DNA of 64,000 bases, from assembly GCF_003018235.1 (NCBI RefSeq), contig NZ_CP027437.1, one strand, 5' to 3'. This document shows positions 1-14,496 of the stretch, piece by piece. The DNA is from Escherichia coli (GTDB taxonomy: Bacteria > Pseudomonadota > Gammaproteobacteria > Enterobacterales > Enterobacteriaceae). A program made the translations under genes and the position numbers. Position 1 is the stretch's first letter. Every line of letters starts with the position of its first letter. The notes beneath the pieces were generated by a model. The model saw nothing but the letters and a program-made list of their open reading frames with translations. It ran no database searches and was not told the DNA's origin.

Positions 1-158
1 ATTTGTTCTACAATACCATATGACGCCCGATATTACGCCATACATAGAATATGACTACCTTGACCGTCAGGGTGTTTACAACGGCAGAGATAATTTATCG
101 GAAAACAGTTATCGCATTGGTGTGTCATTTAAACTGTAGTAGACAGGAGACAGTCACA

Positions 159-1265
159 ATGAATAAAACAATAACGGCGCTTGCTATCATAATGGCTTCA
201 TTTGCCGCAAACGCGTCTGTATTACCGGAAACTCCTGTGCCATTTAAAAGTGGTACCGGAGCAATTGATAACGACACTGTCTACATTGGTTTAGGTAGCG
301 CAGGTACAGCATGGTACAAGCTGGATACACAGGCCAAAGATAAAAAATGGACAGCGTTAGCTGCATTCCCTGGTGGGCCGAGAGATCAAGCAACCTCTGC
401 ATTTATTGATGGTAATCTGTATGTGTTTGGCGGCATTGGCAAAAACAGCGAGGGCTTGACTCAGGTATTTAATGACGTACACAAATACAACCCCAAAACC
501 AATAGCTGGGTTAAATTGATGTCGCACGCGCCGATGGGCATGGCGGGCCATGTGACTTTTGTACACAACGGCAAGGCTTATGTTACTGGCGGTGTTAACC
601 AGAATATCTTCAATGGCTATTTTGAAGATCTCAACGAGGCTGGAAAAGATTCAACCGCTATAGATAAAATCAACGCCCACTATTTTGACAAAAAAGCAGA
701 AGATTATTTCTTCAATAAGTTTCTGTTGTCTTTTGATCCCTCAACACAGCAATGGAGTTACGCTGGCGAATCTCCCTGGTACGGAACGGCTGGTGCGGCG
801 GTTGTGAATAAAGGTGATAAAACCTGGCTTATTAATGGCGAAGCCAAACCAGGATTGCGAACGGATGCCGTATTTGAACTTGATTTCACCGGTAATAATT
901 TAAAATGGAATAAGCTTGCTCCCGTCTCATCACCAGATGGCGTCGCTGGCGGTTTTGCAGGCATGAGCAATGACTCACTGATATTTGCCGGAGGGGCCGG
1001 ATTCAAAGGGTCACGGGAAAATTACCAAAACGGTAAGAACTATGCGCATGAAGGCCTGAAAAAATCATATAGCACTGATATTCATCTTTGGCATAACGGG
1101 AAATGGGATAAATCTGGTGAATTATCGCAAGGTCGGGCCTACGGAGTATCATTGCCCTGGAATAATAGTTTATTAATTATTGGCGGTGAAACTGCAGGCG
1201 GCAAAGCGGTGACGGATTCAGTTTTAATTTCTGTGAAGGATAATAAAGTCACAGTACAAAACTAA
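159..1265 (+). CDS. nanM: N-acetylneuraminate epimerase (Kelch-repeat, YjhT/NanM)
   Basis: ORF translation from MNKTITALAIIMASFAANA (signal peptide) matches NanM along its length; SD aggaga about 9 nt upstream of ATG at 159; the ORF-track start at 51 is an upstream extension. Confidence 0.9.
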   Translation: MNKTITALAIIMASFAANASVLPETPVPFKSGTGAIDNDTVYIGLGSAGTAWYKLDTQAKDKKWTALAAFPGGPRDQATSAFIDGNLYVFGGIGKNSEGLTQVFNDVHKYNPKTNSWVKLMSHAPMGMAGHVTFVHNGKAYVTGGVNQNIFNGYFEDLNEAGKDSTAIDKINAHYFDKKAEDYFFNKFLLSFDPSTQQWSYAGESPWYGTAGAAVVNKGDKTWLINGEAKPGLRTDAVFELDFTGNNLKWNKLAPVSSPDGVAGGFAGMSNDSLIFAGGAGFKGSRENYQNGKNYAHEGLKKSYSTDIHLWHNGKWDKSGELSQGRAYGVSLPWNNSLLIIGGETAGGKAVTDSVLISVKDNKVTVQN

Positions 1266-1329
1266 CGCTTCAGGGTCCCAGTAAAGGGGCCCTGCTATCA
1301 ATTTGTCATTTGTATTACGCGAAAATTAT

Positions 1330-2310
1330 ATGAACGCAATAATATCGCCCGATTATTACTATGTTCTTACCGTTGCTGGTCAGTCTAATGCCATGGCGTA
1401 TGGCGAAGGACTGCCATTACCGGACAGGGAAGATGCGCCTCATCCCAGAATTAAACAATTAGCGAGATTTGCGCATACGCATCCCGGAGGCCCGTCATGT
1501 CACTTTAACGACATTATTCCACTGACTCACTGCCCACACGATGTTCAGGATATGCAGGGTTATCACCATCCTCTGGCAACGAATCATCAAACACAGTACG
1601 GCACCGTTGGCCAGGCACTGCATATTGCACGGAAATTACTGCCCTTTATTCCTGATAACGCAGGGGTTCTCATCGTTCCGTGTTGCCGTGGCGGATCGGC
1701 TTTTACCGCGGGCAGCGAAGGGAAATATTCAGAACGGCACGGAGCCAGCCATGATGCTTGTCGTTGGGGAACGGATACTCCGCTATACCAGGATTTAGTC
1801 AGCAGAACGCGAGCCGCACTGGCAAAAAATCCGCAGAACAAATTCCTCGGCGTATGCTGGATGCAAGGCGAATTTGACTTAATGACCAGTGACTACGCGT
1901 CACACCCTCAACACTTTAATCATATGGTTGAAGCCTTTCGTAGGGAGCTAAAACAATACCATTCTCAGCTTAATAATATTACTGACGCACCGTGGTTTTG
2001 CGGCGATACCACCTGGTACTGGAAAGAAAATTTCCCTCATGCGTATGAAGCTATTTATGGCAATTATCAAAATAATGTTTTAGCCAATATTATTTTCGTC
2101 GACTTCCAGCAACAAGGTGCAAGAGGACTGACGAACGCGCCTGATGAAGATCCAGACGATTTAAGCACGGGATATTACGGTTCAGCGTACCGGTCACCGG
2201 AGAACTGGACGACGGCACTGCGAAGCAGTCATTTCAGCGCGGCAGCCCGTCGGGGGATTATTTCTGACAGGTTTGTAGAAGCAATTTTGCAGTTTTGGCG
2301 CGAAAGGTGA
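1330..2310 (+). CDS. nanS: 9-O-acetyl-N-acetylneuraminate esterase
   Basis: Translation from MNAIISPDYYYVLTVAGQSNA matches NanS (YjhS); follows nanM in the same orientation as in the nanCMS operon. Confidence 0.88.
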   Translation: MNAIISPDYYYVLTVAGQSNAMAYGEGLPLPDREDAPHPRIKQLARFAHTHPGGPSCHFNDIIPLTHCPHDVQDMQGYHHPLATNHQTQYGTVGQALHIARKLLPFIPDNAGVLIVPCCRGGSAFTAGSEGKYSERHGASHDACRWGTDTPLYQDLVSRTRAALAKNPQNKFLGVCWMQGEFDLMTSDYASHPQHFNHMVEAFRRELKQYHSQLNNITDAPWFCGDTTWYWKENFPHAYEAIYGNYQNNVLANIIFVDFQQQGARGLTNAPDEDPDDLSTGYYGSAYRSPENWTTALRSSHFSAAARRGIISDRFVEAILQFWRER

Positions 2311-2317
2311 GCGTTCA

Positions 2318-2518
2318 TTAATTTGATTTATTTGCATCCATTAGCGCTTTTAACTGCTCCGGCGTAAACGGTGGTTTGCGTCGGTGCAACATCGCATGGC
2401 AATTAGGGCACACAGGAAGCAAATCATTAACTGGATCCAGCTGGTAATCCTCTTTAATGGCTGAAAGCGGCACCAGGTGATGCACATTAAGCAATTTCAG
2501 AACCGCATGCTCATACAT
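2318..2518 (-). pseudogene. Short HNH-endonuclease-like ORF (66 aa), probably a truncated remnant
   Basis: Translation carries HH..P....N....CPNCH..H spacing typical of HNH nuclease cores but is far shorter than standalone HNH enzymes. Confidence 0.35.
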
Positions 2519-2577
2519 ATTTCCCCCTAAGTTTGCTCACTGCCTTTAATTTATGTCACAGGCAATGTAATTCACCT

Positions 2578-2649
2578 GAAGCTCATCTTGAATCTGTCCT
2601 TCTACTTAGTCATTACCCTACTGGCACAACCGACCTCAAGATGAGCTTC
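2578..2649. repeat. 14-bp perfect inverted repeat (gaagctcatcttga / tcaagatgagcttc) with 44-bp spacer
   Basis: Read directly from sequence, arms at 2578-2591 and 2636-2649; lies just 3-prime of the minus-strand gene ending at 2656. Confidence 0.6.
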
Positions 2650-2655
2650 TTACTT

Positions 2656-3264
2656 TTAACGATGTATCAGAACAATCTTGCGCCGGGAGAATAGCGTTTC
2701 CGCAGACAGCTGGAATTTATATTCCGCGGCCTTCAGCTTTCGCGATTTAAGCATTTTCATCGTGATACCCCTTATTTTCCCTGACTCAACCTGTCTCTTG
2801 ATTTCGCCGGTGCTCAGCATGAGCTGCTTTTGCAAAATCGACAGCAGGCTGACCTGAAACGAACGGGAAATCCTGACGCTAACCTTGACCCATTTGCCGG
2901 GAGAAAGGCTGGCTAACCACTGCTCCTGAATGCGAAAATCAGGCCGACCCGATAGCTCTGCGTTGTTCCGCTTCAGCATCGCGATATCACAGGAAAAATG
3001 TTGAACCGTGGCTGCATCGTTGCTCATCAGCCGGTTATGAAGTTCGCGGTCAATTTTGCTGACGTGCAGGCGCGAAAATAGGGAGATATTCCAGGTGTAA
3101 TCACAGTGTGTGCATTTATAGATACTCCACACGTCCAGCACCTTCTTTTGCGAATTAATCCGAAATGCACCTGATGGCGTGAAGTCCCGTTTAATGTTGC
3201 ATGAAGGGCATCGCTTCGCAATGCGCTGATACCCCACGGGCGTGACGGTCCATGTAACTTTCAT
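2656..3264 (-). CDS. Hypothetical protein with N-terminal CxxC...CxxC zinc ribbon and basic C-terminal region (202 aa)
   Basis: Long ORF with two CxxC pairs (CPSC, CTHC) and a K/R-rich C-terminus; no confident family assignment. Confidence 0.5.
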   Translation of the reverse strand: MKVTWTVTPVGYQRIAKRCPSCNIKRDFTPSGAFRINSQKKVLDVWSIYKCTHCDYTWNISLFSRLHVSKIDRELHNRLMSNDAATVQHFSCDIAMLKRNNAELSGRPDFRIQEQWLASLSPGKWVKVSVRISRSFQVSLLSILQKQLMLSTGEIKRQVESGKIRGITMKMLKSRKLKAAEYKFQLSAETLFSRRKIVLIHR

Positions 3265-3559
3265 AACCTACCTTTTTTAACCCATACAAAACCGGATCCG
3301 TACTGAACGGACCATGGATGTTTATGTATGAAAAATATTTAAGAGATATTTTTCAGAGGGTTAAAAAAAGATTTCCAACTATGCAATCCTGTCGGTGAGC
3401 AAAGAGATATAGCGAGACTATCAAAACGGCAATTATTGGGTATATGAGTTCAATCAATATTCATGATGGTTATGGCTTGTTCTATTGATCTGACACATTA
3501 AACACGGCGCATTAATTTTGTATGTTTTATGAACAACCCAACAACAAAAGGAGCGCGAT

Positions 3560-3811
3560 ATGACACAGCACGAACGGTTTTGTCAGGCCTGCGGAATGCC
3601 GATGTCCGCACCTGATGCGCAGGGGAGTAGCGATAAATACTGTGCATACTGCAGCGATAGCAACGGCAATCTTAAACCCTGGGAAGAGGCGGTATCAGGC
3701 TTGGCCAGCTTCCTTGATTCCTGGCAAAAAGTCGGTCCAGAAGAAGCACAGAAGCGTGCAAAACGTTATCTGACGGCAATGCCTGCCTGGGCTCATAAAG
3801 CGGACGAGTGA
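3560..3811 (+). CDS. Small zinc-ribbon domain protein (83 aa)
   Basis: CQAC...CAYC motif; strong SD aaaggag 8 nt upstream of ATG. Confidence 0.5.
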   Translation: MTQHERFCQACGMPMSAPDAQGSSDKYCAYCSDSNGNLKPWEEAVSGLASFLDSWQKVGPEEAQKRAKRYLTAMPAWAHKADE

Positions 3812-3875
3812 ATAACAAAGTCAGGGTGATTTAGGCAGTCTATCTTCACTCCGCTGATTCCATTAAGGAGAGCCG

Positions 3876-4268
3876 ATGTTTTCTCACATTATGCTTGGAA
3901 CCAACAACCTGCCACGCGCCATTGCATTCTACGATCCGTTGATGGATATGCTGGGGTATCCCCGCGGCGGCAGGAAGAGGAGATCGCATGGTGGGGCGTT
4001 TTCAACGGTAATAACACTACGGCACTGGGTATCAGTAGGCCATTTGATAAACAGGTTGCCACGACCCGAAATGGAGTGATGGTCGCCCTGATTGCGCGTT
4101 CTGCCGAACACATCCAGCAAGTTTCATGTGCTAGCTTTAAATCACGGTGGCACTGACGAGGGAGCACCTGGCCAGCGTCCGCATTACGGCGAAGGGTTCT
4201 ACAGCGCTTACGTCAGAGACACCGATGGCAACAAGCTGGCTTACGTTTATTACACCGCACAATCCTGA
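3876..4268 (+). pseudogene. VOC/glyoxalase-family gene disrupted by frameshifts
   Basis: N-terminus MFSHIMLGTNNLPRAIAFYDPLMDMLGY in frame 1 (SD aaggaga upstream); the rest of a VOC-like protein (ALGISRPFDKQVATTRNGVMVAL... and GGTDEGAPGQRPHYGEGFYSAYVRDTDGNKLAYVYY) continues in the other two frames, implying at least two frameshifts. Confidence 0.5.
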
Positions 4269-4512
4269 GAACGATAAAGCGGGGGCCTCAGCGCCCCCAC
4301 CTGAAACTAAACCGATCCCGCAGATGTCAATGAGCGTTGAACGAGTTGATAAATGCCGAGATGTCTGACTGTTTTTACGCCAGAACTCCATGGTGTGACA
4401 ACCATACACATACTCCCTTCTTGACACCTTTAAACCATTTAACCGCATGCCTCTGTCTGCCCTGCAGGGACGGCTGATGCCTGTGTGTTGTCTGGCGGTA
4501 AGGAACAATACT

Positions 4513-4674
4513 ATGTACGCAAAATCCTTTATCGCTCTCGACGGGAATGGTCGTCTGACCGGTGCCCGTACTGCGCAGACCGCCCCTTACGATCGTTATA
4601 CCTGCCACCTCTGCGGTAGCGTGCTGCAATACCATCCTGAATACATCACCGAACGCCCGTGCTTTGAACAGTAA
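4513..4674 (+). CDS. Small hypothetical ORF (53 aa, MYAKSFIALDGNGRL...)
   Basis: ATG preceded by aagga-like SD; contains CHLCGS motif; function unknown, could be a remnant. Confidence 0.25.
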   Translation: MYAKSFIALDGNGRLTGARTAQTAPYDRYTCHLCGSVLQYHPEYITERPCFEQ

Positions 4675-5266
4675 CCAACACACTGACAGAGGGCGGCGAA
4701 AATGCTTTATGCAAATCTTGATGCAAAGGCAGCCAGACGAATTCGTAAGTTACGCTTTTACGTGGCAGATACTCAAAGCAGACTGGCATTGTAGCGACGA
4801 TTGCCACGGTGAACGCTATTGTATGGCATGTAGTACCTGAGACTTCAGCCGCCCAGTAGATATAGCATCATGAAAAAACTGAAATGCTTTCTTGCCAACA
4901 ACTCACTGAGCTAGTATGCCTCCACCGATGTAACAATTAGAGCAAGCGTCAAAGTGCGAAACTGCCCTCACGTAGCTGCAAGTTAACACCAGGAAATCCT
5001 GGTTCAAACACGACCAGCTCTATGTTAGCGGCAAGCAATCGTTGAACTAAACGCATATGCAGCCGGAGATGAAAGTTAGGAAAAAAGCAGAGGCTGATAA
5101 GAATTATGCACGTTGAGCTGGGATCGTAATACCCCACTTAAAATGTACAAGGGGAGTAGTCTAATGATGTTAAATACGAACCTTCAGTATTGTTCATTCA
5201 CCAATTTTCCCATATTCTCTCATCATTAATATTCTCTGCCGAATTTTATAGGGCTAACTCGCTGAA

Positions 5267-5470
5267 ATGAATGACAAAGCTTTAACCTTGAAAGATGTGG
5301 TGGCTTACTTAAAGTTGGCAGAAAAAACAGCGTATAGGTTGACTAGCGAAGGCAAATTGCCGGGATTTAAGGTTGAAGGCTCATGACGCTTCAAACGAGA
5401 GGATTTAGATATGTGGATTGAAGGTCAGAAGACTCAAAGCTACCCGAGTATCACAAAATCCAATCGTGGT
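5267..5470 (+). pseudogene. Excisionase/AlpA-like HTH DNA-binding protein interrupted by in-frame TGA
   Basis: Translation MNDKALTLKDVVAYLKLAEKTAYRLTSEGKLPGFKVEGS*RFKREDLDMWIEGQ; the stop at 5384-5386 sits where this family has the conserved Trp of the GSWRF motif. Confidence 0.5.
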
Positions 5471-5666
5471 TGATCAAGTGGATAAACATGAAAAGTCGGT
5501 AGCCCTCAAAGGCCACTTGCCACATGCAGTGAAGCAAGCCGTTGTGCAAGCTCTACTGAAAGAAGGTGATATCGCCCGAACGTTGCTCAAGGATCCACAA
5601 GTTATGGCAAGTTATGTTGAGCTGATTTTCGACATGATGAAGCAGAATAAAAATATGAATATCTAA
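5418..5666 (+). CDS. Small hypothetical ORF immediately upstream of the ATPase gene (non-ATG start in ORF track)
   Basis: ORF-track call only; start is TTG/GTG with no convincing SD; overlaps the 3-prime end of the HTH pseudogene. Confidence 0.2.
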   Translation: MKVRRLKATRVSQNPIVVDQVDKHEKSVALKGHLPHAVKQAVVQALLKEGDIARTLLKDPQVMASYVELIFDMMKQNKNMNI

Positions 5667-5708
5667 AAGATTTTGGGCTATCTATTACGTTTTAAAATGA
5701 GATAAATA

Positions 5709-8246
5709 ATGATAAATGACCATGAAGAACTAGAACTTGCTAAAGCTCAGGCAAAAGAAATATGGAAGATCCTTGATTATGTTCGAGGAGCATCACCTAT
5801 ATCTAATTATCGCTCATTAGCGTATTCAATCTTCTTCGTACGCTATCTTCAATCCAATACAGGTCAGCATTTTGAGGCAGAAAGGTTCGACTCTTTTAAT
5901 GTCATCGCCCAGTATTCCTACGATCTTGTAAACTATGCCGTTCAACTTGGATTGATTCATAGCGACGTATCTAAATTCTTAATTTATTATTTAGAAAACA
6001 CACTCCGTTCATTTGTCAATATTGATGAGTCTTTTGTTCGTTATGCAATTAGAGATGGTCTACTCAATAAAACCCCTGCAATAGCGTCGCTTTCTTTATC
6101 AGAACTGGATTTACTTTTTGCCGAGAATGAAGGTAAGTCAGGAGGTGAGTTTTATACCCCTAGAGACGTCAACTTATTGGTTAAAATATTAGGATTGAGT
6201 TATCAACCAAAGTCAATATGTGACCCATTTGCAGGTGCTGGAAACACAGCATTTCCTTTTGCCAATACTGGTATTGAAAAAGTTAGGATTGATACTCAAG
6301 AAATTAATAGAGATGCTTACTTTAAACTAGTAATAAGTAGAGTCATCAGGAAAATAGAAGGTCGAGACTATTTCGGCGATTCCCTATCACAACCATTATA
6401 TCAAGAAAATAAATATGATCTGATAGTTTCTTTCCCACCTTTTGGCATGAAAATTCCTAAAGCCACTCGAAATAATATTTACTATAAAACAAGTAATAAG
6501 TGGCTGGATATTACTGAAATCTTGCCAGAAAGTAGAAGTGATTGGTTTATAACATTATCAATGCTTCCAGCCCTTTCTGAGGGGGGTAAGATACTAGTAG
6601 GTATGTCACTTGGGGCTTTGACAAGAGCAGGCTCTGAGGCAAAGGTTCGTGAGTATTTAGTCTCTCGCGGAATTATCGAACAAGTAATTCTTTTACCTAA
6701 AAATATTTATTACTCTACGGCTATCTCAACTGTACTTCTTGTCCTCAACTCAGGAACAAGTAACATAAATAACAGAAGTATTAAATTTGTAGATGCTTCA
6801 CTGTTTTACGAGCCTGCCCGTGGTCGAAACACCCTCACAACAAAAAATATAAATGAGATCGTAGAGGCTTGTCATAAAGATGGCCGATTTAGTATTAGTT
6901 CATCTCATACCCAAATAGCAAACAGAGACTTTAATTTAGATCCGTCTCTTTATGTACGTAAAGATCTCAAAATCAGTGAGGTTTCTTTAAAAAATTTTAG
7001 AGGATACTCTGACTTTAAAGTTTCGATACATCCTTCTTTAAATGTATTGGTTGGTGAGAACGGCGTCGGGAAAACTTCGATATTAGAAGCATTAGCATGT
7101 GGCCTTGGTCCTTTCCTTACTGCTATGCCTGATGCTAAAGGAAAACTGATAAAAAAATCAGATATCCATATAAGTTCAAAAGGAATCGCAAATTATGCTC
7201 GAATATCGATTGAAACAACATCAAGTTTAAGTTGGGATCTTGTGGCAAAGGGGGTTGATGTTTCCGAGCCCCCTAAGATAGGAACATCAGCATTAACTAG
7301 CTACGCTACTCATCTTGTAGATAGTCAGTCTGAATATCCACTCATTGCTTATTATGGGACTAACCGTGCTCTTACTTCTACCAGTTCTAAAGTTGCAATA
7401 AATCCATTCGAGAAAGAAAATCGTGGGGAAGGTTATGACTTTGCTTTAGATGCTAAAGTTAACTACGGCATCTTAAAGAACTGGTTTTCAAAAATAGAGG
7501 TTGATGAGCTTCGAAAACGTGATGAACTAAAAGACCATAAATTCATTCATCCGGCTAAGAGACTTGTTTCAGAGGCTGTTTACCAGATTGTTGATCGAGC
7601 TACATGCTTGGAGTTCGACAAAAATAGTAACGATGTTATGGTTCATTGGAAAAATGAGCAGGGAGAGTGCGTAAAGCTTACATTGGAACAACTAAGTGAA
7701 GGGTATAGAAATATGGTATCCCTGACCATTGACCTAGTGAGGCGTGCTTATTTACTTAATCCTACCAAACCGAAACCGCTAACAGTTAATGGGATCGTTT
7801 TAATTGATGAAATTGAACTTCACTTGCACCCTAGATGGCAGCAAAAGATTTTAAATGATCTTACTAAGCTGTTTAAGAATATTCAGTTTATTGTCACGAC
7901 ACATAGTCCTCAAGTCTTAACAACAATCAAAGCCGATTGTATCCGTATTGTTTCCGTCAATGCTAACGAAGCAAAATTAGTGACAGGAACTACTACTTAC
8001 GGTTCTGAAAGCTCAAGAATGTTGGAAGATGTTTTAGGTGGTAACAATCGCGCCCAACATCTTGATATTGTTAAAAAACTAAACCGTTATACAGAGTTAG
8101 TAGAGGCCGACAAATGGGATACCGATGAGGCATTAGAACTCAAAAAAGAGTTATATAAATGGGGTGGTCAGACAGAAGACGAGCTTCAAAAATTAGAAAC
8201 TGATATTCGAATTCGCGAGTTCGAGCGTGGCAATGAAAAAGATTAA
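5709..8246 (+). CDS. Fusion protein: N-terminal gamma-class N6-adenine methyltransferase-like domain plus C-terminal ABC-type ATPase (Septu PtuA-like)
   Basis: MTase-like motifs in order X-I-IV: EFYTPRDV (about aa 147), DPFAGAGN (about aa 172), SFPPFG (about aa 240). ATPase motifs: Walker A GENGVGKTS (about aa 449), Walker B VLIDEIELHLHP (about aa 695), TTHSP (about aa 730). AT-rich coding sequence. Confidence 0.75.
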   Translation: MINDHEELELAKAQAKEIWKILDYVRGASPISNYRSLAYSIFFVRYLQSNTGQHFEAERFDSFNVIAQYSYDLVNYAVQLGLIHSDVSKFLIYYLENTLRSFVNIDESFVRYAIRDGLLNKTPAIASLSLSELDLLFAENEGKSGGEFYTPRDVNLLVKILGLSYQPKSICDPFAGAGNTAFPFANTGIEKVRIDTQEINRDAYFKLVISRVIRKIEGRDYFGDSLSQPLYQENKYDLIVSFPPFGMKIPKATRNNIYYKTSNKWLDITEILPESRSDWFITLSMLPALSEGGKILVGMSLGALTRAGSEAKVREYLVSRGIIEQVILLPKNIYYSTAISTVLLVLNSGTSNINNRSIKFVDASLFYEPARGRNTLTTKNINEIVEACHKDGRFSISSSHTQIANRDFNLDPSLYVRKDLKISEVSLKNFRGYSDFKVSIHPSLNVLVGENGVGKTSILEALACGLGPFLTAMPDAKGKLIKKSDIHISSKGIANYARISIETTSSLSWDLVAKGVDVSEPPKIGTSALTSYATHLVDSQSEYPLIAYYGTNRALTSTSSKVAINPFEKENRGEGYDFALDAKVNYGILKNWFSKIEVDELRKRDELKDHKFIHPAKRLVSEAVYQIVDRATCLEFDKNSNDVMVHWKNEQGECVKLTLEQLSEGYRNMVSLTIDLVRRAYLLNPTKPKPLTVNGIVLIDEIELHLHPRWQQKILNDLTKLFKNIQFIVTTHSPQVLTTIKADCIRIVSVNANEAKLVTGTTTYGSESSRMLEDVLGGNNRAQHLDIVKKLNRYTELVEADKWDTDEALELKKELYKWGGQTEDELQKLETDIRIREFERGNEKD

Positions 8247-9021
8247 TAAGCTAGATGAGCCAAATCGGCTTGGTGTGTTCAAGGCTACTCATCCTAATGC
8301 TTTGTGGGAGAGGGATAAAAACTCAATTGAAGAGGCTTTCCGTTGTTGCATTGCCAGATATCAAGAAACTCTACAACAATTACGTACGGACCAAGGTAAT
8401 TTATGTGCATATTGTGAACAGGATTTAATGTCTGGAACTAATGGGGCATTAGATGACTGCCGTATTGAGCATTTTCATCCGAAATCTAAACGTGAACAGG
8501 GAGAACCTAATTGGGCTTTGGAATGGAGCAATTTGTTAGTTGTTTGCTGTGGCGGAAATCAAAGTAAAGTTGTTAATCCTGGGCAAAGATTTGATGCTGA
8601 TCCCAAAAATTACTCTTGCGATGTACCAAAGAGTGACAAAATTTTAGATACCATTATATTAAATCCACTTAATTTACCTGAATTAAATATCTGGAAGTTT
8701 CATCGTTCTTCGGGGCAAATTTCCGTAAATGAAGATTCCTGTTTAGAATTTGGTATAAGTGTTGAAATGGCACACCAAACAATTAAAGAATTGAATTTAA
8801 ATTCCCCTCGATTAATTAGATTTCGAAAGGCTATTCTAAATAATCTCAACATTTTAATAACAGAAAGGCTGAAGAAGGGACAAACGGTAGAGCAAGCTGT
8901 TAGATTTATTGCCATATCACTCTTTAGAAAAAATGGAGCAGGTGATTGGCCCTCTTTTTTTAGTGCAACACGATATTATTTAGGTCAGCAGGCTGAGCTT
9001 GTTTTAGCCCAACCTATTTAA
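8227..9021 (+). CDS. HNH nuclease (Septu PtuB-like)
   Basis: Motif CAYCEQD...DDCRIEHFHPKS...WSNLLVVCCGGN; start (GTG 8227 or ATG 8233) overlaps the stop of the upstream ATPase gene, indicating an operon. Confidence 0.7.
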   Translation: MAMKKINKLDEPNRLGVFKATHPNALWERDKNSIEEAFRCCIARYQETLQQLRTDQGNLCAYCEQDLMSGTNGALDDCRIEHFHPKSKREQGEPNWALEWSNLLVVCCGGNQSKVVNPGQRFDADPKNYSCDVPKSDKILDTIILNPLNLPELNIWKFHRSSGQISVNEDSCLEFGISVEMAHQTIKELNLNSPRLIRFRKAILNNLNILITERLKKGQTVEQAVRFIAISLFRKNGAGDWPSFFSATRYYLGQQAELVLAQPI

Positions 9022-9040
9022 CATACTTTCAACTAGTTAG

Positions 9041-9063
9041 AGAGGCTGCTTTTGGCAGCCTCT
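9041..9063. terminator. Hairpin between convergent operons (agaggctgcttttggcagcctct)
   Basis: Perfect stem agaggctgc/gcagcctct with T-rich loop, located between the stop at 9021 (+) and the stop at 9082 (-). Confidence 0.4.
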
Positions 9064-9081
9064 TGCAGAGTGCAGAATCGA

Positions 9082-10515
9082 CTACAGGGGCGATGCTAGC
9101 TCAGAGAACCAAGCGTGAACTGATCTGTAAAATGTGCTGATTGACCAAAACTCACTGCATGCAGCAACTAACAGAATGACCACTAAGAGGATCACTACAG
9201 TAGAAGTCATTCTTTCCACACGGCAGTATGATCCCATCGCATCTTTTACAGGTTGTCTAGCCAGTTCCTGATAATCCAGCTCATCCAGAAATCCGTATAA
9301 TTTAGTTCTCCAGGTGGTTCTAACTCTTTCAAGTAATGAAATTGTTTGCCTATTAATATAGACAGACATTCCATAGGAAATAACTATATAAACCGCGATA
9401 GCACAAAAAACCAAAGCGTAAATATTTTGCAAACCAACTGATTTTACTGCATCCAGACTGTAGCGAATAACCAAGACACTAATTACAAGAGCCATATCTT
9501 TCCATAAGGAAGAGGACAAATCTCGGGATTGCTGAATGATCTTTTGTGTATCTTCAGCCAGCGTTTTCCGCAAATCACCCAAGGATTTCATAGTATCTTT
9601 ACCACCAGTCCTGATATGGGCCTTATACATTAACCGTGCAGACTCCAAAGCTGATGAGAGTCGAAGCATCACTCCCTCACAAAAGTTCAGGTCTGAAGGC
9701 CACTCTCTAGCCAGCTCGCTGGACAAAAACGTATGTTTCAGCTCAGTTTCATTCCCCTCTAGAAAAATCCACTTTGCCGCTTCCTGGATAATATCAAAAG
9801 CAGGTAACGCTGCCGTCTCATCGCCGAATGCTATTTTTCTGGGAGGCTTTCCCGCAAGCCCCACCATCATTTCGTCAGCAAAAAAAAGTTCATTTGCAAA
9901 ACATTTCAGCAACTCTCGGCATCCTAGCAATTTCCATATCTTGATTGCTTCATCAGTCTTCTCACTACAAGTTTCAAGTATCCAAGGGGCAATGGCATCT
10001 GGAGGAAGAAAAGTTGTTGAATAACATTTGATGATACTTTTTGTTACTGAAGGCTTAGTGATAGCTGTTGCATCACCAGCACTCACCGGCTGTATCTCCT
10101 TCCATGGATGCACATACCAACTTATTGTCTGAAAGCCTTCAGTAATAAACAGCCCATAAATATGTTTGTACCGACAGAGTTTGCTATCTTGAAGTAAAAA
10201 AGTGCGCCATCCTTCTAAGGTAAAAAGCCTCAGTATCCCCGGAATTTCATTATAAGTGATGGTAATGTAGTGCTTCTGCCCTGGGACCCCCTCTCTCGGA
10301 TGAATAACATCTCTGCTCTCATCGATAAAAACGATCTTGAGATCTTCCGCATGTACATCCACTATTTCTCCCCATAAATCAAGGGATTCACTATCCATTG
10401 TGGCGGAAATAAAAAGCTTATGGATAGACACCTGCTGGTCCTCTGTGATCACAAGGTCAGATAAATGTCGTGAGTGGCATATAGCCTTACCGATTTTTTC
10501 CAATATCGATATCAT
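9082..10515 (-). CDS. Hypothetical protein with C-terminal transmembrane helices (477 aa)
   Basis: Long ORF; C-terminal hydrophobic segments (IYALVFCAIAVYIVISYGMSVYI and STVVILLVVILLVAACSEFWSI); 29-nt overlap with the upstream gene; no recognisable catalytic motif. Confidence 0.55.
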   Translation of the reverse strand: MISILEKIGKAICHSRHLSDLVITEDQQVSIHKLFISATMDSESLDLWGEIVDVHAEDLKIVFIDESRDVIHPREGVPGQKHYITITYNEIPGILRLFTLEGWRTFLLQDSKLCRYKHIYGLFITEGFQTISWYVHPWKEIQPVSAGDATAITKPSVTKSIIKCYSTTFLPPDAIAPWILETCSEKTDEAIKIWKLLGCRELLKCFANELFFADEMMVGLAGKPPRKIAFGDETAALPAFDIIQEAAKWIFLEGNETELKHTFLSSELAREWPSDLNFCEGVMLRLSSALESARLMYKAHIRTGGKDTMKSLGDLRKTLAEDTQKIIQQSRDLSSSLWKDMALVISVLVIRYSLDAVKSVGLQNIYALVFCAIAVYIVISYGMSVYINRQTISLLERVRTTWRTKLYGFLDELDYQELARQPVKDAMGSYCRVERMTSTVVILLVVILLVAACSEFWSISTFYRSVHAWFSELASPL

Positions 10516-11548
10516 CTGTTACCAATCCTGCAGTCACAATTACAATTCGTTTTCGCCCGTCTTCCATATTTTCTACTTCTGGTGCATTGTCTTCATCGTA
10601 GATAATGATTACATCTTCCAATGTTTCCAGTTTTCTCTTCCGGGGCTTCTGAATGTTATCGGGAATGATGCGGAAAGATTCACCTGAAATTCCTAAATCC
10701 TTTATTTTACGAAAAAAATACTTAACCAGAGGGTGTTCTTCCTCCAAAGGACCAAAAATCTGGGTCAACAATGGCAGTGCTTCATCAGTATTAAAATCCT
10801 GTTCGCCATGGCGTAAAGTTTCATAAATTTTGTTTACTCCGCTGCGCTTGATCTCTTCAGGTAGTAAGTTTCGATGCTTTTTATATACATCTTTTAATAC
10901 AGTAACTAGCTTATCGCTGAGCTGAGTTGGGTCATTGACGCGCTTAACCTGTAGAAATCGTTCAAAATAGACAGAGATGTTAGTACGTTTGCTGCGATCT
11001 CGTACGACAACTAATCCGCCCGGCAAATCTTCATTCAGCCGTACCAGTGCGATTTTCTGCATGGCTTCGGCTTTTTTAACGAAACTTTCGCGAAAGCGTT
11101 CGAGTTTAGGTACCTGAAACTCATCTCCTTCAACATCCAGCACATAACGGACTACATCTTCATTGTCATACTTAATCAACGCATACAGTTTCTCATCGTT
11201 GAGTGTATGAAGTTCAAAAAGGAAAAAAACGCCCATACTGGCATTCTTGGTATGGTGGTGAGACTGAAAATCGCTTGCCAATAAGGAGGATTGCTCAGTA
11301 AAGCAGCCGATATCGGTGTCTGCATGTTCCCTGATGATCCTCAGGATTCGCTCTGTATTTGACAACTCCTTAAAATGAAACATATTGCCACTAACTGCAG
11401 ATTTGATACGTTCCAGAAAGAAATCAACATGCTCCGGAGGGGAAATTTCGCTGAGTAAAACAGGGACTTCCAACTCACCGCCAACCACATGAAAAATCAT
11501 CCTTTTTATTGATAATGCATTGATTTCTTCATCCGTTAAAAAACTCAT
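10487..11548 (-). CDS. Hypothetical protein (353 aa), weak resemblance to NdpA/YejK-type nucleoid-associated proteins
   Basis: Long ORF first in a two-gene operon; size and scattered sequence patterns recall YejK, but this is an unverified impression. Confidence 0.5.
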   Translation of the reverse strand: MSFLTDEEINALSIKRMIFHVVGGELEVPVLLSEISPPEHVDFFLERIKSAVSGNMFHFKELSNTERILRIIREHADTDIGCFTEQSSLLASDFQSHHHTKNASMGVFFLFELHTLNDEKLYALIKYDNEDVVRYVLDVEGDEFQVPKLERFRESFVKKAEAMQKIALVRLNEDLPGGLVVVRDRSKRTNISVYFERFLQVKRVNDPTQLSDKLVTVLKDVYKKHRNLLPEEIKRSGVNKIYETLRHGEQDFNTDEALPLLTQIFGPLEEEHPLVKYFFRKIKDLGISGESFRIIPDNIQKPRKRKLETLEDVIIIYDEDNAPEVENMEDGRKRIVIVTAGLVTDDIDIGKNR

Positions 11549-11744
11549 TTTTATTTCTCAATATAGTGTTTATATTTACTACCGTGAGCCATCTTACCTA
11601 AGCGTAGAACGTGGCGGAAAACACGATAACATTATTGCATAGCTTACGGCGTAACTTATCCTCGCCCCAGACAGAATAAACGTCAAAATAAAATAATGAA
11701 AATATGATCGAGACAGCATTAGCTGCCCCGCTTTCTTAGACTTT

Positions 11745-12998
11745 TTACATTATTAGGGCAAAATCAAACGGACTCACCCCCTTCTCCCGATTCGCATCCA
11801 GATAATTTGCCCACCACTGCAGCATCAACCTACGCTCCCCAAGATGTTCCGCCTTATGGATGTATGCCGCCCGCACAGAGCTACGCTCCTGATGGCTCAT
11901 CTGCCGCTCCACTGCATTCCTCGACCACAATCCTGATTCAATAAGTGAACTACAGGCCATCGTCCTGAAACCATGCCCACAGACTTCCGTTTTGGTGTCA
12001 TAGCCCATAACTCGCAAAGCCTTGTTCACCGTATTCTCACTCATCGGCTTATGCGGATCGTGATCGCCCACAAAAATCAGCTCTCGATTTCCATTCATGC
12101 TTTTGATCTTTTCCAAAATAGCTAAGGCCTGCCGCGATAAGGGTACAAGATGGGGAGTTCGCATCTTCGAACCACGCTGAGAATGTTTAACACCGTCCAA
12201 CGGTTCACGCTCACCGGGGATCGTCCACATGGCCGTTTCAAAATCCACTTCTGACCAACGGGCAAAGCGCAGTTCGCTTGAACGGATGAAAACTAACAAA
12301 GTGAGTTCGACAGCCAGTCGAGTTAACGGCCTGCCGGAGTAATGATCAATGCGGTGAAGTAATTCAGGTATGCGGTTAAGCTCCAGAGCCGCACGATGCT
12401 GTCTTTTAGCAGTAGCAACCGCACCGGTAATCTCTTGCGCGGGGTTGTAGTCGATTAAGCCGCTCTGAACGGCAAAGCGCATAATCGCGGTAGTTCGCTG
12501 CTGTAAACGGGCGGCGACTTCAAGACGTCCGGATGACTCCACCGCTTTAATGGGTACAAGAAGATCCCGAGTCTTAAGCTCTGCAATGTTCCGCTTACCG
12601 ATAGCAGCAAAGAGATTATCTTCTAGGCTTTTCAATACACGAGCACTATGCGATGCAGACCACTTCTGATTACTGGCATGCCAGTCTCTGACGACCACTT
12701 CAAACGTTATCGCCTCTTGCTCCTGTTCTACCTTAACCGCTTTCTTGTTTTCACTGGGATCGACGCCGTTCGCTAAAAGCTTACGCGCTTCGTCTCGCCG
12801 CGATCGAGCATCAGCTAACGAAACTTCAGGATACTTCCCTAGCGCCAGCATCTTCTCTTTACCACCGAAACGATAACGAAGCCGCCAGTATTTGGAGCCG
12901 TTAGGGTGAACCAGCAAAACCATGCCTTCACCATCAGTAAGTTTATAGGCTTTTGCTTCAGGCTTTGCCGAACGAACCTTCACATCACTCAGAGCCAT
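11745..12998 (-). CDS. P4-type tyrosine integrase (IntB-like), apparently intact
   Basis: Translation MALSDVKVRSAKPEAKAYKLTDGEGMVLLVHPNGSKYWRLRYRFGGKEK... matches P4/CP4-like integrases and ends with a tyrosine-recombinase C-terminus; adjacent to tRNA-Leu 3-prime end. Confidence 0.85.
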   Translation of the reverse strand: MALSDVKVRSAKPEAKAYKLTDGEGMVLLVHPNGSKYWRLRYRFGGKEKMLALGKYPEVSLADARSRRDEARKLLANGVDPSENKKAVKVEQEQEAITFEVVVRDWHASNQKWSASHSARVLKSLEDNLFAAIGKRNIAELKTRDLLVPIKAVESSGRLEVAARLQQRTTAIMRFAVQSGLIDYNPAQEITGAVATAKRQHRAALELNRIPELLHRIDHYSGRPLTRLAVELTLLVFIRSSELRFARWSEVDFETAMWTIPGEREPLDGVKHSQRGSKMRTPHLVPLSRQALAILEKIKSMNGNRELIFVGDHDPHKPMSENTVNKALRVMGYDTKTEVCGHGFRTMACSSLIESGLWSRNAVERQMSHQERSSVRAAYIHKAEHLGERRLMLQWWANYLDANREKGVSPFDFALIM

Positions 12999-13196
12999 GA
13001 TGAATATCCTTTCAAGGGTTCTGTGTGGGTACAAACATTATCGAACCGGGATATACCCGCAGTTGTACCCGCATCAGTAAGTTGATGTAGATTGAATCAG
13101 GTTGACTTAGGTTGAGTGAAAAAGCGAGGAAAGCCTTGCGGATACTGGATTTCAGGCATAAAAAAAGACCTCAGTTGAGGTCTATTTACATACTTA

Positions 13197-13281
13197 TGGT
13201 GCCGAAGGCCGGACTCGAACCGGCACGTATTTCTACGGTTGATTTTGAATCAACTGCGTCTACCGATTTCGCCACTTCGGC
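13197..13281 (-). tRNA. leuX: tRNA-Leu (CAA)
   Basis: Reverse complement reads GCCGAAGTGGCGAAATCGGTAGACGCAGTTGATTCAAAATCAACCGTAGAAATACGTGCCGGTTCGAGTCCGGCCTTCGGCACCA, with cloverleaf features and a long variable arm. Confidence 0.9.
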
Positions 13282-13476
13282 ACTGAAGAGGTATGCGGAA
13301 AACGTTGTGGATTATACCTGTCGCACGCCACCATGCAAGCGCCAGCTTGCTCGCACCTCGCTAAGTGCTGAAATTTTCAGCATTGCATACAGTGATGTGT
13401 AACCTTTGTCACACTCCAGGCACCCCGCCCTGCCATGCTCTACACTTCCCAGACAACACCAGAGAAGGACCAAAAA

Positions 13477-14496
13477 ATGTCGATGATAAAAAGCTATGCT
13501 GCAAAAGAAGCGGGCGGCGAACTGGAAGTTTATGAGTACGATCCCGGTGAACTGAAGCCACAAGATGTTGAAGTGCAGGTGGATTACTGCGGGATCTGTC
13601 ATTCCGATCTGTCAATGATCGATAACGAATGGGGATTTTCACAATATCCACTGGTTGCCGGGCATGAGGTGATTGGTCGCGTAGTGGCGCTCGGGAGTGC
13701 CGCGCAGGATAAAGGTTTGCAGGTCGGTCAGCGTGTCGGGATTGGCTGGACGGCACGCAGCTGCGGGCATTGCGATGCCTGTATTAGCGGTAATCAGATC
13801 AACTGCGAGCAAGGTGCGGTGCCGACGATTATGAATCGCGGTGGCTTTGCCGAGAAGTTGCGTGCGGACTGGCAATGGGTGATTCCACTGCCAGAAAATA
13901 TCGACATTGAATCTGCCGGACCGCTGTTGTGCGGCGGTATCACGGTCTTTAAACCGCTGTTGATGCACCATATCACTGCCACCAGCCGCGTTGGGGTAAT
14001 TGGTATTGGCGGGCTGGGGCATATAGCTATAAAACTTCTGCACGCAATGGGATGCGAGGTGACAGCCTTTAGTTCTAATCCGGCGAAAGAGCAGGAAGTG
14101 CTGGCGATGGGTGCCGATAAAGTGGTGAATAGCCGCGATCCACAGGCACTGAAAGCACTGGCGGGGCAGTTTGATCTCATTATCAACACCGTCAACGTCA
14201 GCCTCGACTGGCAGCCTTATTTTGAGGCGCTGACGTATGGCGGTAATTTCCACACCGTCGGTGCGGTTCTCACGCCGTTGCCGGTTCCGGCCTTTACGCT
14301 GATTGCGGGCGATCGCAGTGTCTCTGGCTCTGCTACCGGCACGCCCTATGAGTTGCGTAAGCTGATGCGCTTTGCCGCCCGCAGCAAGGTTGCGCCGACC
14401 ACCGAACTGTTCCCGATGTCGAAAATTAACGACGCCATCCAGCATGTGCGCGACGGTAAGGCGTGTTACCGCGTGGTTCTGAAAGCCGACTTCTGA
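13477..14496 (+). CDS. ahr: NADPH-dependent aldehyde reductase (YjgB)
   Basis: Translation from [22 protein letters not shown]... with zinc-ADH motif GHEVIGRV. Confidence 0.9.

Follow-up and report, generated by a model that had tools for sequence, protein, structure and literature searches.

A chimeric HNH nuclease remnant, very probably a deletion scar, beside nanS in the leuX island of Escherichia coli

The nanS end of the leuX island

At the locus level, we analysed a 64-kb stretch of Escherichia coli DNA (hereafter, the window) that contains nanS, leuX and the genes between them (Table 1). The positions of leuX –the island anchor– and of the P4-type integrase delimit an island of about 10.9 kb (2311 to 13196), with a 66-aa ORF at its far end. 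The other flank is nanS, which is conserved and sets the limit on deletion extent. A second copy of the leuX 3' end (attR) was sought near the 66-aa ORF with up to three mismatches, and none was found. According to PMC12707154, citing PMC10121019, leuX is 'hotspot #37' for defence genes in E. coli; it has the highest occupancy of 41 such hotspots, and 97% of isolates have defence genes there.

Table 1. Features at the nanS end of the leuX island, in window positions
Feature	Position	Strand	Evidence
YthB-like ORF, 29 aa	2229..2318	minus	Pfam YthB PF23516 E=6.9e-20; PGAP hypothetical WP_374758120.1
nanS (sialate O-acetylesterase), conserved flank	1303..2310	plus	Pfam SASA 6e-13; PGAP nanS label in other genomes
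Chimeric ORF, 66 aa	2318..2518	minus	ORF list; Pfam HNH match
HNH-derived segment (parent codons 162-216 and stop)	2318..2487	minus	nucleotide identity to L002:6069-6719; PGAP pseudogene in L001
Inferred deletion junction, 3-bp microhomology (ATG on the minus strand)	2485..2487	minus	three-way alignment
YbaK/EbsC-derived segment (first 10 codons 2488-2518, Shine-Dalgarno, DUF1062-ybaK spacer)	2488..2655	minus	PapM-32-1 identity
Hairpin in the DUF1062-ybaK spacer	2578-2649	minus	15-bp perfect stem
DUF1062 gene, upstream of the chimeric ORF, same strand	2656..3264	minus	Pfam DUF1062 4e-40; PGAP
VOC-family gene, apparently frameshifted, and DUF7828 zinc-ribbon ORF after it	3876-4268, 4447-4674	plus	two overlapping frames
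N6-adenine methyltransferase domain and PtuA-type ATPase, 845 aa	5709-8246	plus	MTase_I 1e-30; PADLOC PtuA 4.7e-106
PtuB-type HNH gene	8227-9021	plus	1.9e-100
P4-type integrase	11745-13034		Pfam domains
leuX, tRNA-Leu(CAA), island anchor	13197..13281	minus	ARAGORN; Rfam tRNA

The 66-aa ORF is convergent with nanS and ends 8 nt past the nanS stop (2310). It is an ATG-to-TAA frame of 66 codons. Seven codons before the ATG an in-frame TGA closes it, and the Shine-Dalgarno sequence AGGGGG precedes the start by 4 nt. Its product is MYEHAVLKLLNVHHLVPLSAIKEDYQLDPVNDLLPVCPNCHAMLHRRKPPFTPEQLKALMDANKSN, and the identical sequence is deposited in GenBank as KDT97035.1, 'HNH endonuclease family protein'.

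A first, sequence-only reading of this DNA had noted an HNH-like His/Asn/Cys-pair pattern in the ORF next to nanS. The profile search bears this out: Pfam HNH (PF01844) matches the product with E=4e-5 and 24.1 bits, passing the gathering cut-off of 21.4, and the motif residues are HH (13-14), N31/D32, CPNC (37-40), H41, and H45. The beta-beta-alpha-metal residues (general-base His, Asn/Asp, and metal-binding His) are all present, with HH13-14, N31/D32, and H41/H45 aligning with H163/H164, D182, and H191/H195 of the family of the parent gene described below. The match is confined to profile positions 13-47 of 47; thus, the first CxxC zinc knuckle is absent. Of the four Cys ligands of a complete HNH domain, the product has only C37 and C40, and C141 and C144 of the parent are gone.

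No known short functional HNH family accounts for the product in full; such a match would have refuted the view of the ORF as a remnant. Pfam HNH and HNH_2 gave partial matches only, NCBIfam contained no relevant model, and the search for a short HNH family in Pfam, NCBIfam, and PADLOC returned partial or weak matches only. We also considered and rejected a short stand-alone HNH family: the protein-database search with the 66 aa retrieved short proteins only, and these are assorted truncations and contig-edge fragments with unrelated N-termini.

Several observations concern the neighbouring genes. In recent PGAP annotations, nanS is reduced to a piece of 345-504 bp, labelled 'sialate O-acetylesterase, incomplete, missing C-terminus' (e.g., L001:3303-3647, in one of the loci compared here). 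The 335-codon nanS frame of the window is open, and the truncated call looks like an annotation artefact, not a broken gene. The VOC-family gene is also annotated as 'frameshifted' by PGAP in E. coli PapM-32-1, and in strain CFSAN018748 it is interrupted by an ISEc31 insertion that is absent from the window; a DUF7828 zinc-ribbon ORF follows it in the window. Deeper in the island, the PtuB-type HNH gene overlaps the gene for the 845-aa PtuA-type protein. Judging from their profile matches, the two genes form a Septu-like pair in which a methylase is fused to PtuA.

Two parental genes and their junction

On the nanS side, window 2250-2487 matches, at about 97-97.5% nucleotide identity, the 3' end of a full-length E. 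coli gene annotated as HNH. The two are collinear as far as 2487, where the window diverges abruptly. In strain L3452210II and many others, the homology runs on into the intact 651-bp gene, annotated as 'HNH endonuclease' (216 aa, WP_001037966.1), which is convergent with nanS and divergent from the gene of a 'phosphorothioated DNA-binding restriction endonuclease'. The ORF had been proposed to be the remnant of an earlier system at this boundary, and the intact gene indeed occupies the same nanS-side position in many E. coli. Since the identity to this gene reaches 97.5% over 2250-2487, the window ORF is a fragment of a family member and not a member itself; its orthologous position and near-identity support descent from the two-domain family. 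PGAP labels 2318-2491 'HNH endonuclease; incomplete; missing N-terminus' in CFSAN018748, a genome with 99.8% identity to the window. The 66-aa stretch is already flagged publicly as an incomplete HNH endonuclease.

The rest of the nuclease had been described as lacking, and a translated search for more pieces had been proposed. We ran it on all 64 kb (tblastn, 216-aa parent), and no piece was found beyond the ORF: there was a single match at 2321-2521 (E=3e-32), with all others at E>0.4, and parent codons 1-161 are absent from the whole window. Parent residues 1-149, which include the N-terminal domain that resembles the ScoMcrA head, had no match anywhere in the window by tblastn. The neighbouring phosphorothioate-binding endonuclease (290 aa) gave no match below E=0.4 in the 64 kb.

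The parent belongs to a family with 7083 relatives at E<=1e-5, almost all of 205-230 aa and with a two-domain architecture. Source annotations of this family of ~210 aa give PF26345 plus PF01844 and, frequently, the JGI name 5-methylcytosine-specific restriction protein A. Parent residues 24-86 align with residues 29-92 of ScoMcrA (5zmm, phmmer E about 1e-3), and residues 123-198 align with the HNH domain of EcoKMcrA (6ghc). The AlphaFold model of the parent, built on a 30-sequence alignment (mean pLDDT 80.5), is laid out as an N-terminal domain (1-92), a disordered linker (93-122), and a nuclease domain (123-216), and Foldseek ranks EcoKMcrA and ScoMcrA first with probability 0.99-1.00. Alignments and model point to a McrA/ScoMcrA-like, type-IV-like HNH nuclease, with a ScoMcrA-head-like N-terminal domain and a McrA-type zinc-finger HNH domain. 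The likeness to EcoKMcrA (277 aa) and ScoMcrA (561 aa), both type IV modification-dependent HNH restriction endonucleases, lies with the domains of the 216-aa parent. However, the parent is much shorter than either and lacks both an SRA and a sulfur-binding domain, and the window fragment contains only part of the HNH domain.

The truncation point falls inside strand 161-164 of the parent model. By the layout of that model, segment 2318-2487 retains part of beta1, beta2, the alpha helix, the second CxxC, and the C-terminal helix. The 30-sequence family alignment has 46 invariant columns: 15 are kept by the window fragment (H163, H164, P179, L183, P185-A192, L194, H195, and P200), and 31 are lost, among them C141, C144, and H161. 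The fragment shares with the nanS-side 216-aa HNH proteins (WP_001037966.1, WP_001586610.1, WP_063815140.1) the last 55 codons, the position, and the orientation to nanS and to the YthB-like ORF. It differs from them in the loss of codons 1-161 (head domain, linker, first half of the nuclease, and first CxxC), and it has 10 foreign codons instead.

These foreign codons refine the earlier reading: the ORF owes its ribosome-binding site, its start codon, and its opening 10 codons to a YbaK/EbsC-family gene. Window 2488-2655 is 99.4% identical to PapM-32-1, where the same sequence leads into a 175-aa YbaK/EbsC-family gene (WP_164476786.1) located directly downstream of DUF1062 on the same strand. 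The 5' spacer, the Shine-Dalgarno, and the ATG are shared, as are 10 of the first 11 residues (MNEHAVLKLLN against MYEHAVLKLLN), whereas the window has nothing past codon 11. The Pfam tRNA_edit domain of the PapM-32-1 protein (PF04073, 1.5e-27 over residues 22-148) is wholly missing from the window, and tblastn of the 175-aa protein against the 64 kb retrieved residues 1-11 only, with the rest at E>0.4. This side of the ORF is rare: among complete E. coli genomes, window 2488-3560 is found at >99% identity only in CFSAN018748 and PapM-32-1.

The three-way alignment defines the junction. With a slash marking the switch, the window reads ...GAAATTGCTTAATG / TGCATCACC..., the ybaK-like gene ...GAAATTGCTTAATG / AGCTGG..., and the HNH gene ...GGCTTTATCCATG / TGCATCACC... 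The ATG is the only sequence common to both parents at the junction, and the window switches parents there; thus, the 66-aa ORF is a chimera. The fusion is in frame, with the first 10 codons of the ybaK-like gene followed by HNH codons 162-216. Both parental sequences are identified and the junction is defined, as in a fusion scar generated by deletion, and we infer that the event was a deletion and not another rearrangement. Homologous exchange between two HNH genes was ruled out because YbaK is unrelated to HNH.

The spacer carried over from the DUF1062-ybaK pair contains a hairpin (GAAGCTCATCTTGAG ... TTCAAGATGAGCTTC) that has no T-tract and is also found in PapM-32-1. The 142-nt spacer around it (2519-2660) folds at -42.4 kcal/mol, with a z-score of -4.9. 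In the Rfam search of window 1-14000 leuX was the sole match, so the hairpin is not a known RNA, and no terminator-like site was found within 2200-2655, the hairpin included.

Erosion of the HNH gene across E. coli

At the population level, we searched 5426 complete E. coli genomes by sequence. About 5000 of them have a match to window 2250-2487 at this locus, of varying extent, and in 1232 at least 80% of the gene for the 216-aa HNH protein is present; the gene is full-length in only 23% of the genomes. Class proportions were taken from an even-step sample of 60 of the 4933 matching records. The gene was full-length in 15 of the 60, in agreement with the exact count, and its coding sequence was absent in 20, a complete deletion of the K-12 type (L007). 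A 105-bp remnant was present in 18 and a 47-bp remnant in five, the latter in O157:H7 and O145 strains (O157-type, L006). The 105-bp class (L003, L005), a PGAP pseudogene, was made through a 12-bp direct repeat, by deletion between two TTTGCTGCCTGT copies, one upstream of the gene and one within it.

Further alleles of the gene are found in the protein database: a DUF932::HNH fusion, an in-frame MNKLPD::LVKIYG deletion, frameshifts, a nonsense allele, and an N-terminally truncated form. The HNH gene has been destroyed independently in E. coli at least six ways. The 105-bp, O157-type 47-bp, and K-12 ythB scars are, like the one in the window, 5'-side truncations, and they form nested 3' remnants abutting nanS. 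They differ in junction position and partner, and the window allele alone is fused to ybaK.

Even full-length copies may not all be functional. The commonest 'intact' 216-aa allele (L002:6069-6719, minus strand) has Tyr at codon 187 instead of the zinc ligand Cys187. It is 100% identical in about seven of the 60 sampled records, and its protein cluster, P0036, comprises 2133 sequences. All 30 aligned members of the family have Cys187, which is also kept by the window fragment (2407-2409) and by alleles L008-L010. Roughly half of the full-length HNH genes appear to carry the Cys187-to-Tyr change. Since an invariant zinc ligand is replaced in the commonest allele, many 'intact' copies may also be dead.

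Regarding the spread of the chimera, the allele was found in one of the 5426 complete genomes (CFSAN018748). A protein look-up placed the exact 66-aa sequence on 111 contigs; it cannot retrieve frameshifted copies, so this sample of carriers is biased to the intact frame. Seven variants with single or double substitutions were found. Three of the polymorphisms (T52S, Q26L, and Q55E) are shared with intact HNH alleles, and two variants fall within the HHLVPLS motif (V15L and P17L). The carriers, chosen for an identical protein, diverge by 0.4-1.3% around the ORF, and one of them has a different sequence upstream of DUF1062. The chimera allele is a lineage marker, and at this level of divergence the lineage is young.

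A second small ORF at this boundary is related to the same gene. The ATG of the YthB-like ORF overlaps the HNH stop codon (TAATG), and the ORF is antisense to the nanS 3' end. In K-12, YthB has 32 aa (MNKLPAHLSRQNC...; L007:2980-3078). The ythB upstream region, its ATG, and its first five codons (MNKLP) match the beginning of the 216-aa HNH gene and the sequence ahead of it (L002:6720-6860) at 86% over 125 nt (E=9e-38), and the rest of K-12 YthB is the sequence just past the HNH stop, antisense to nanS. From these matches, K-12 YthB appears to be a further scar of this HNH gene, presumably left by a deletion rather than by an insertion. YthB has been detected as a tagged protein in K-12 (10.1101/511675). 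Its origin is probably a more interesting point than the 66-aa ORF, with a validated small protein of K-12 that seems to be a scar of the same gene.

Origin of the chimera and alternative readings

We consider that the 66-aa ORF is very probably an inert deletion scar, a chimeric pseudogene. In the proposed ancestor, an intact 216-aa type-IV-like HNH gene would have been located at the nanS end of the leuX island, with a DUF1062-YbaK/EbsC gene pair deeper in the island on the same strand. Illegitimate recombination at the ATG microhomology would then have removed everything from ybaK-like codon 11 to HNH codon 161. The join would have fallen in frame by accident, so that the ybaK ribosome-binding site and 10 codons now lead the last 55 HNH codons.

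The nearest surviving relative of the undeleted arrangement is PapM-32-1, in which the equivalent interval, between the HNH remnant and the ybaK-like gene, spans about 34 kb and contains BREX-1, AbiE, a retron, and other genes. Its HNH remnant, however, is the shorter 105-bp form, which makes this strain kin to the undeleted arrangement but not the ancestor itself. None of the complete genomes combined an intact HNH gene with the ybaK-DUF1062 module; the direct ancestor is therefore a reconstruction.

The product of the chimera may well be translated. If made, the 66-aa peptide would most likely be unstable, inactive, and without function, given what it has lost: the DNA-recognition domain, half of the structural zinc site (the first CxxC, two of four ligands), two nuclease-domain helices, and the invariant His161. 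In itself, the ORF is an ordinary gene remnant of little import at the edge of a well-known variable E. coli island. As a case of island erosion it is fully resolved, with both parents, a junction with 3-bp microhomology, and an in-frame fusion, and the lesson is that a deletion can by accident create an open frame that has a nuclease motif and starts from a good ribosome-binding site.

Among the alternatives, it is very unlikely that the HNH tail was kept for a role in cis, either to couple translation (TAATG) or carry transcription into the YthB-like ORF, or as a spacer or terminator shielding the convergent nanS. In all classes that carry HNH sequence, the YthB-like ORF starts at the HNH stop codon, and the deletion end-points all lie short of the nanS stop (window-equivalent about 2313, 2365, 2423, and 2487), as such a role would have it. 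However, selection to keep nanS intact predicts the same pattern and accounts for the clustering of the end-points. Strains retain anything between 0 and 170 bp of the tail, or even the whole gene, so that none of it is specifically required, and the interval has no terminator-like site, as described above.

Very unlikely, in our view, is the broader proposal that the HNH-gene scars are not inert: the pattern of gene loss and of the Cys187-to-Tyr change would reflect selection against the type IV enzyme at the border of the leuX hotspot, the leftovers would be reused as translated small ORFs (K-12 YthB from the signals and first codons of the dead gene, the chimera from those of ybaK), and the 66-aa peptide would be active, for example by interfering with related HNH enzymes.

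It is likewise very unlikely that the peptide made from the ybaK start signals functions as a mini-protein, whether as a small nuclease or nickase, or as a dominant-negative or decoy of other HNH enzymes such as the PtuB HNH in the same window. The frame is open, the Shine-Dalgarno is good, and the catalytic His, the Asn/Asp, and the metal-binding His are retained. The identical protein is found on the 111 contigs and deposited as KDT97035.1, with conservative variants only, and the detection of the neighbouring scar ORF ythB as a protein in K-12 indicates that scars here can be translated. Against this, two of the four zinc ligands, His161, two nuclease helices, and the entire N-terminal domain are gone, and no known family in Pfam or NCBIfam matches the product over its full length. 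Besides, other strains have shorter remnants or none, so this length is not conserved, and the variants include V15L and P17L, both within the HHLVPLS motif.

Finally, a chance ORF with a coincidental HNH-like pattern is untenable: although ORFs of 60-70 codons are common by chance (the first 6 kb alone have 64 ORFs of 30 aa or more), this one scores above the Pfam HNH gathering threshold and is 97.5% identical at the nucleotide level to the 3' end of an HNH gene found full-length at the same locus in over a thousand genomes.

Apart from the losses that stop short of nanS, erosion can also enter the nan genes from the other side. In E. coli PD23 and MRSN346647 (L008, L010), nanS is deleted, and the intact HNH gene and the phosphorothioate-binding endonuclease gene adjoin a truncated nanM and a type II Zorya system.
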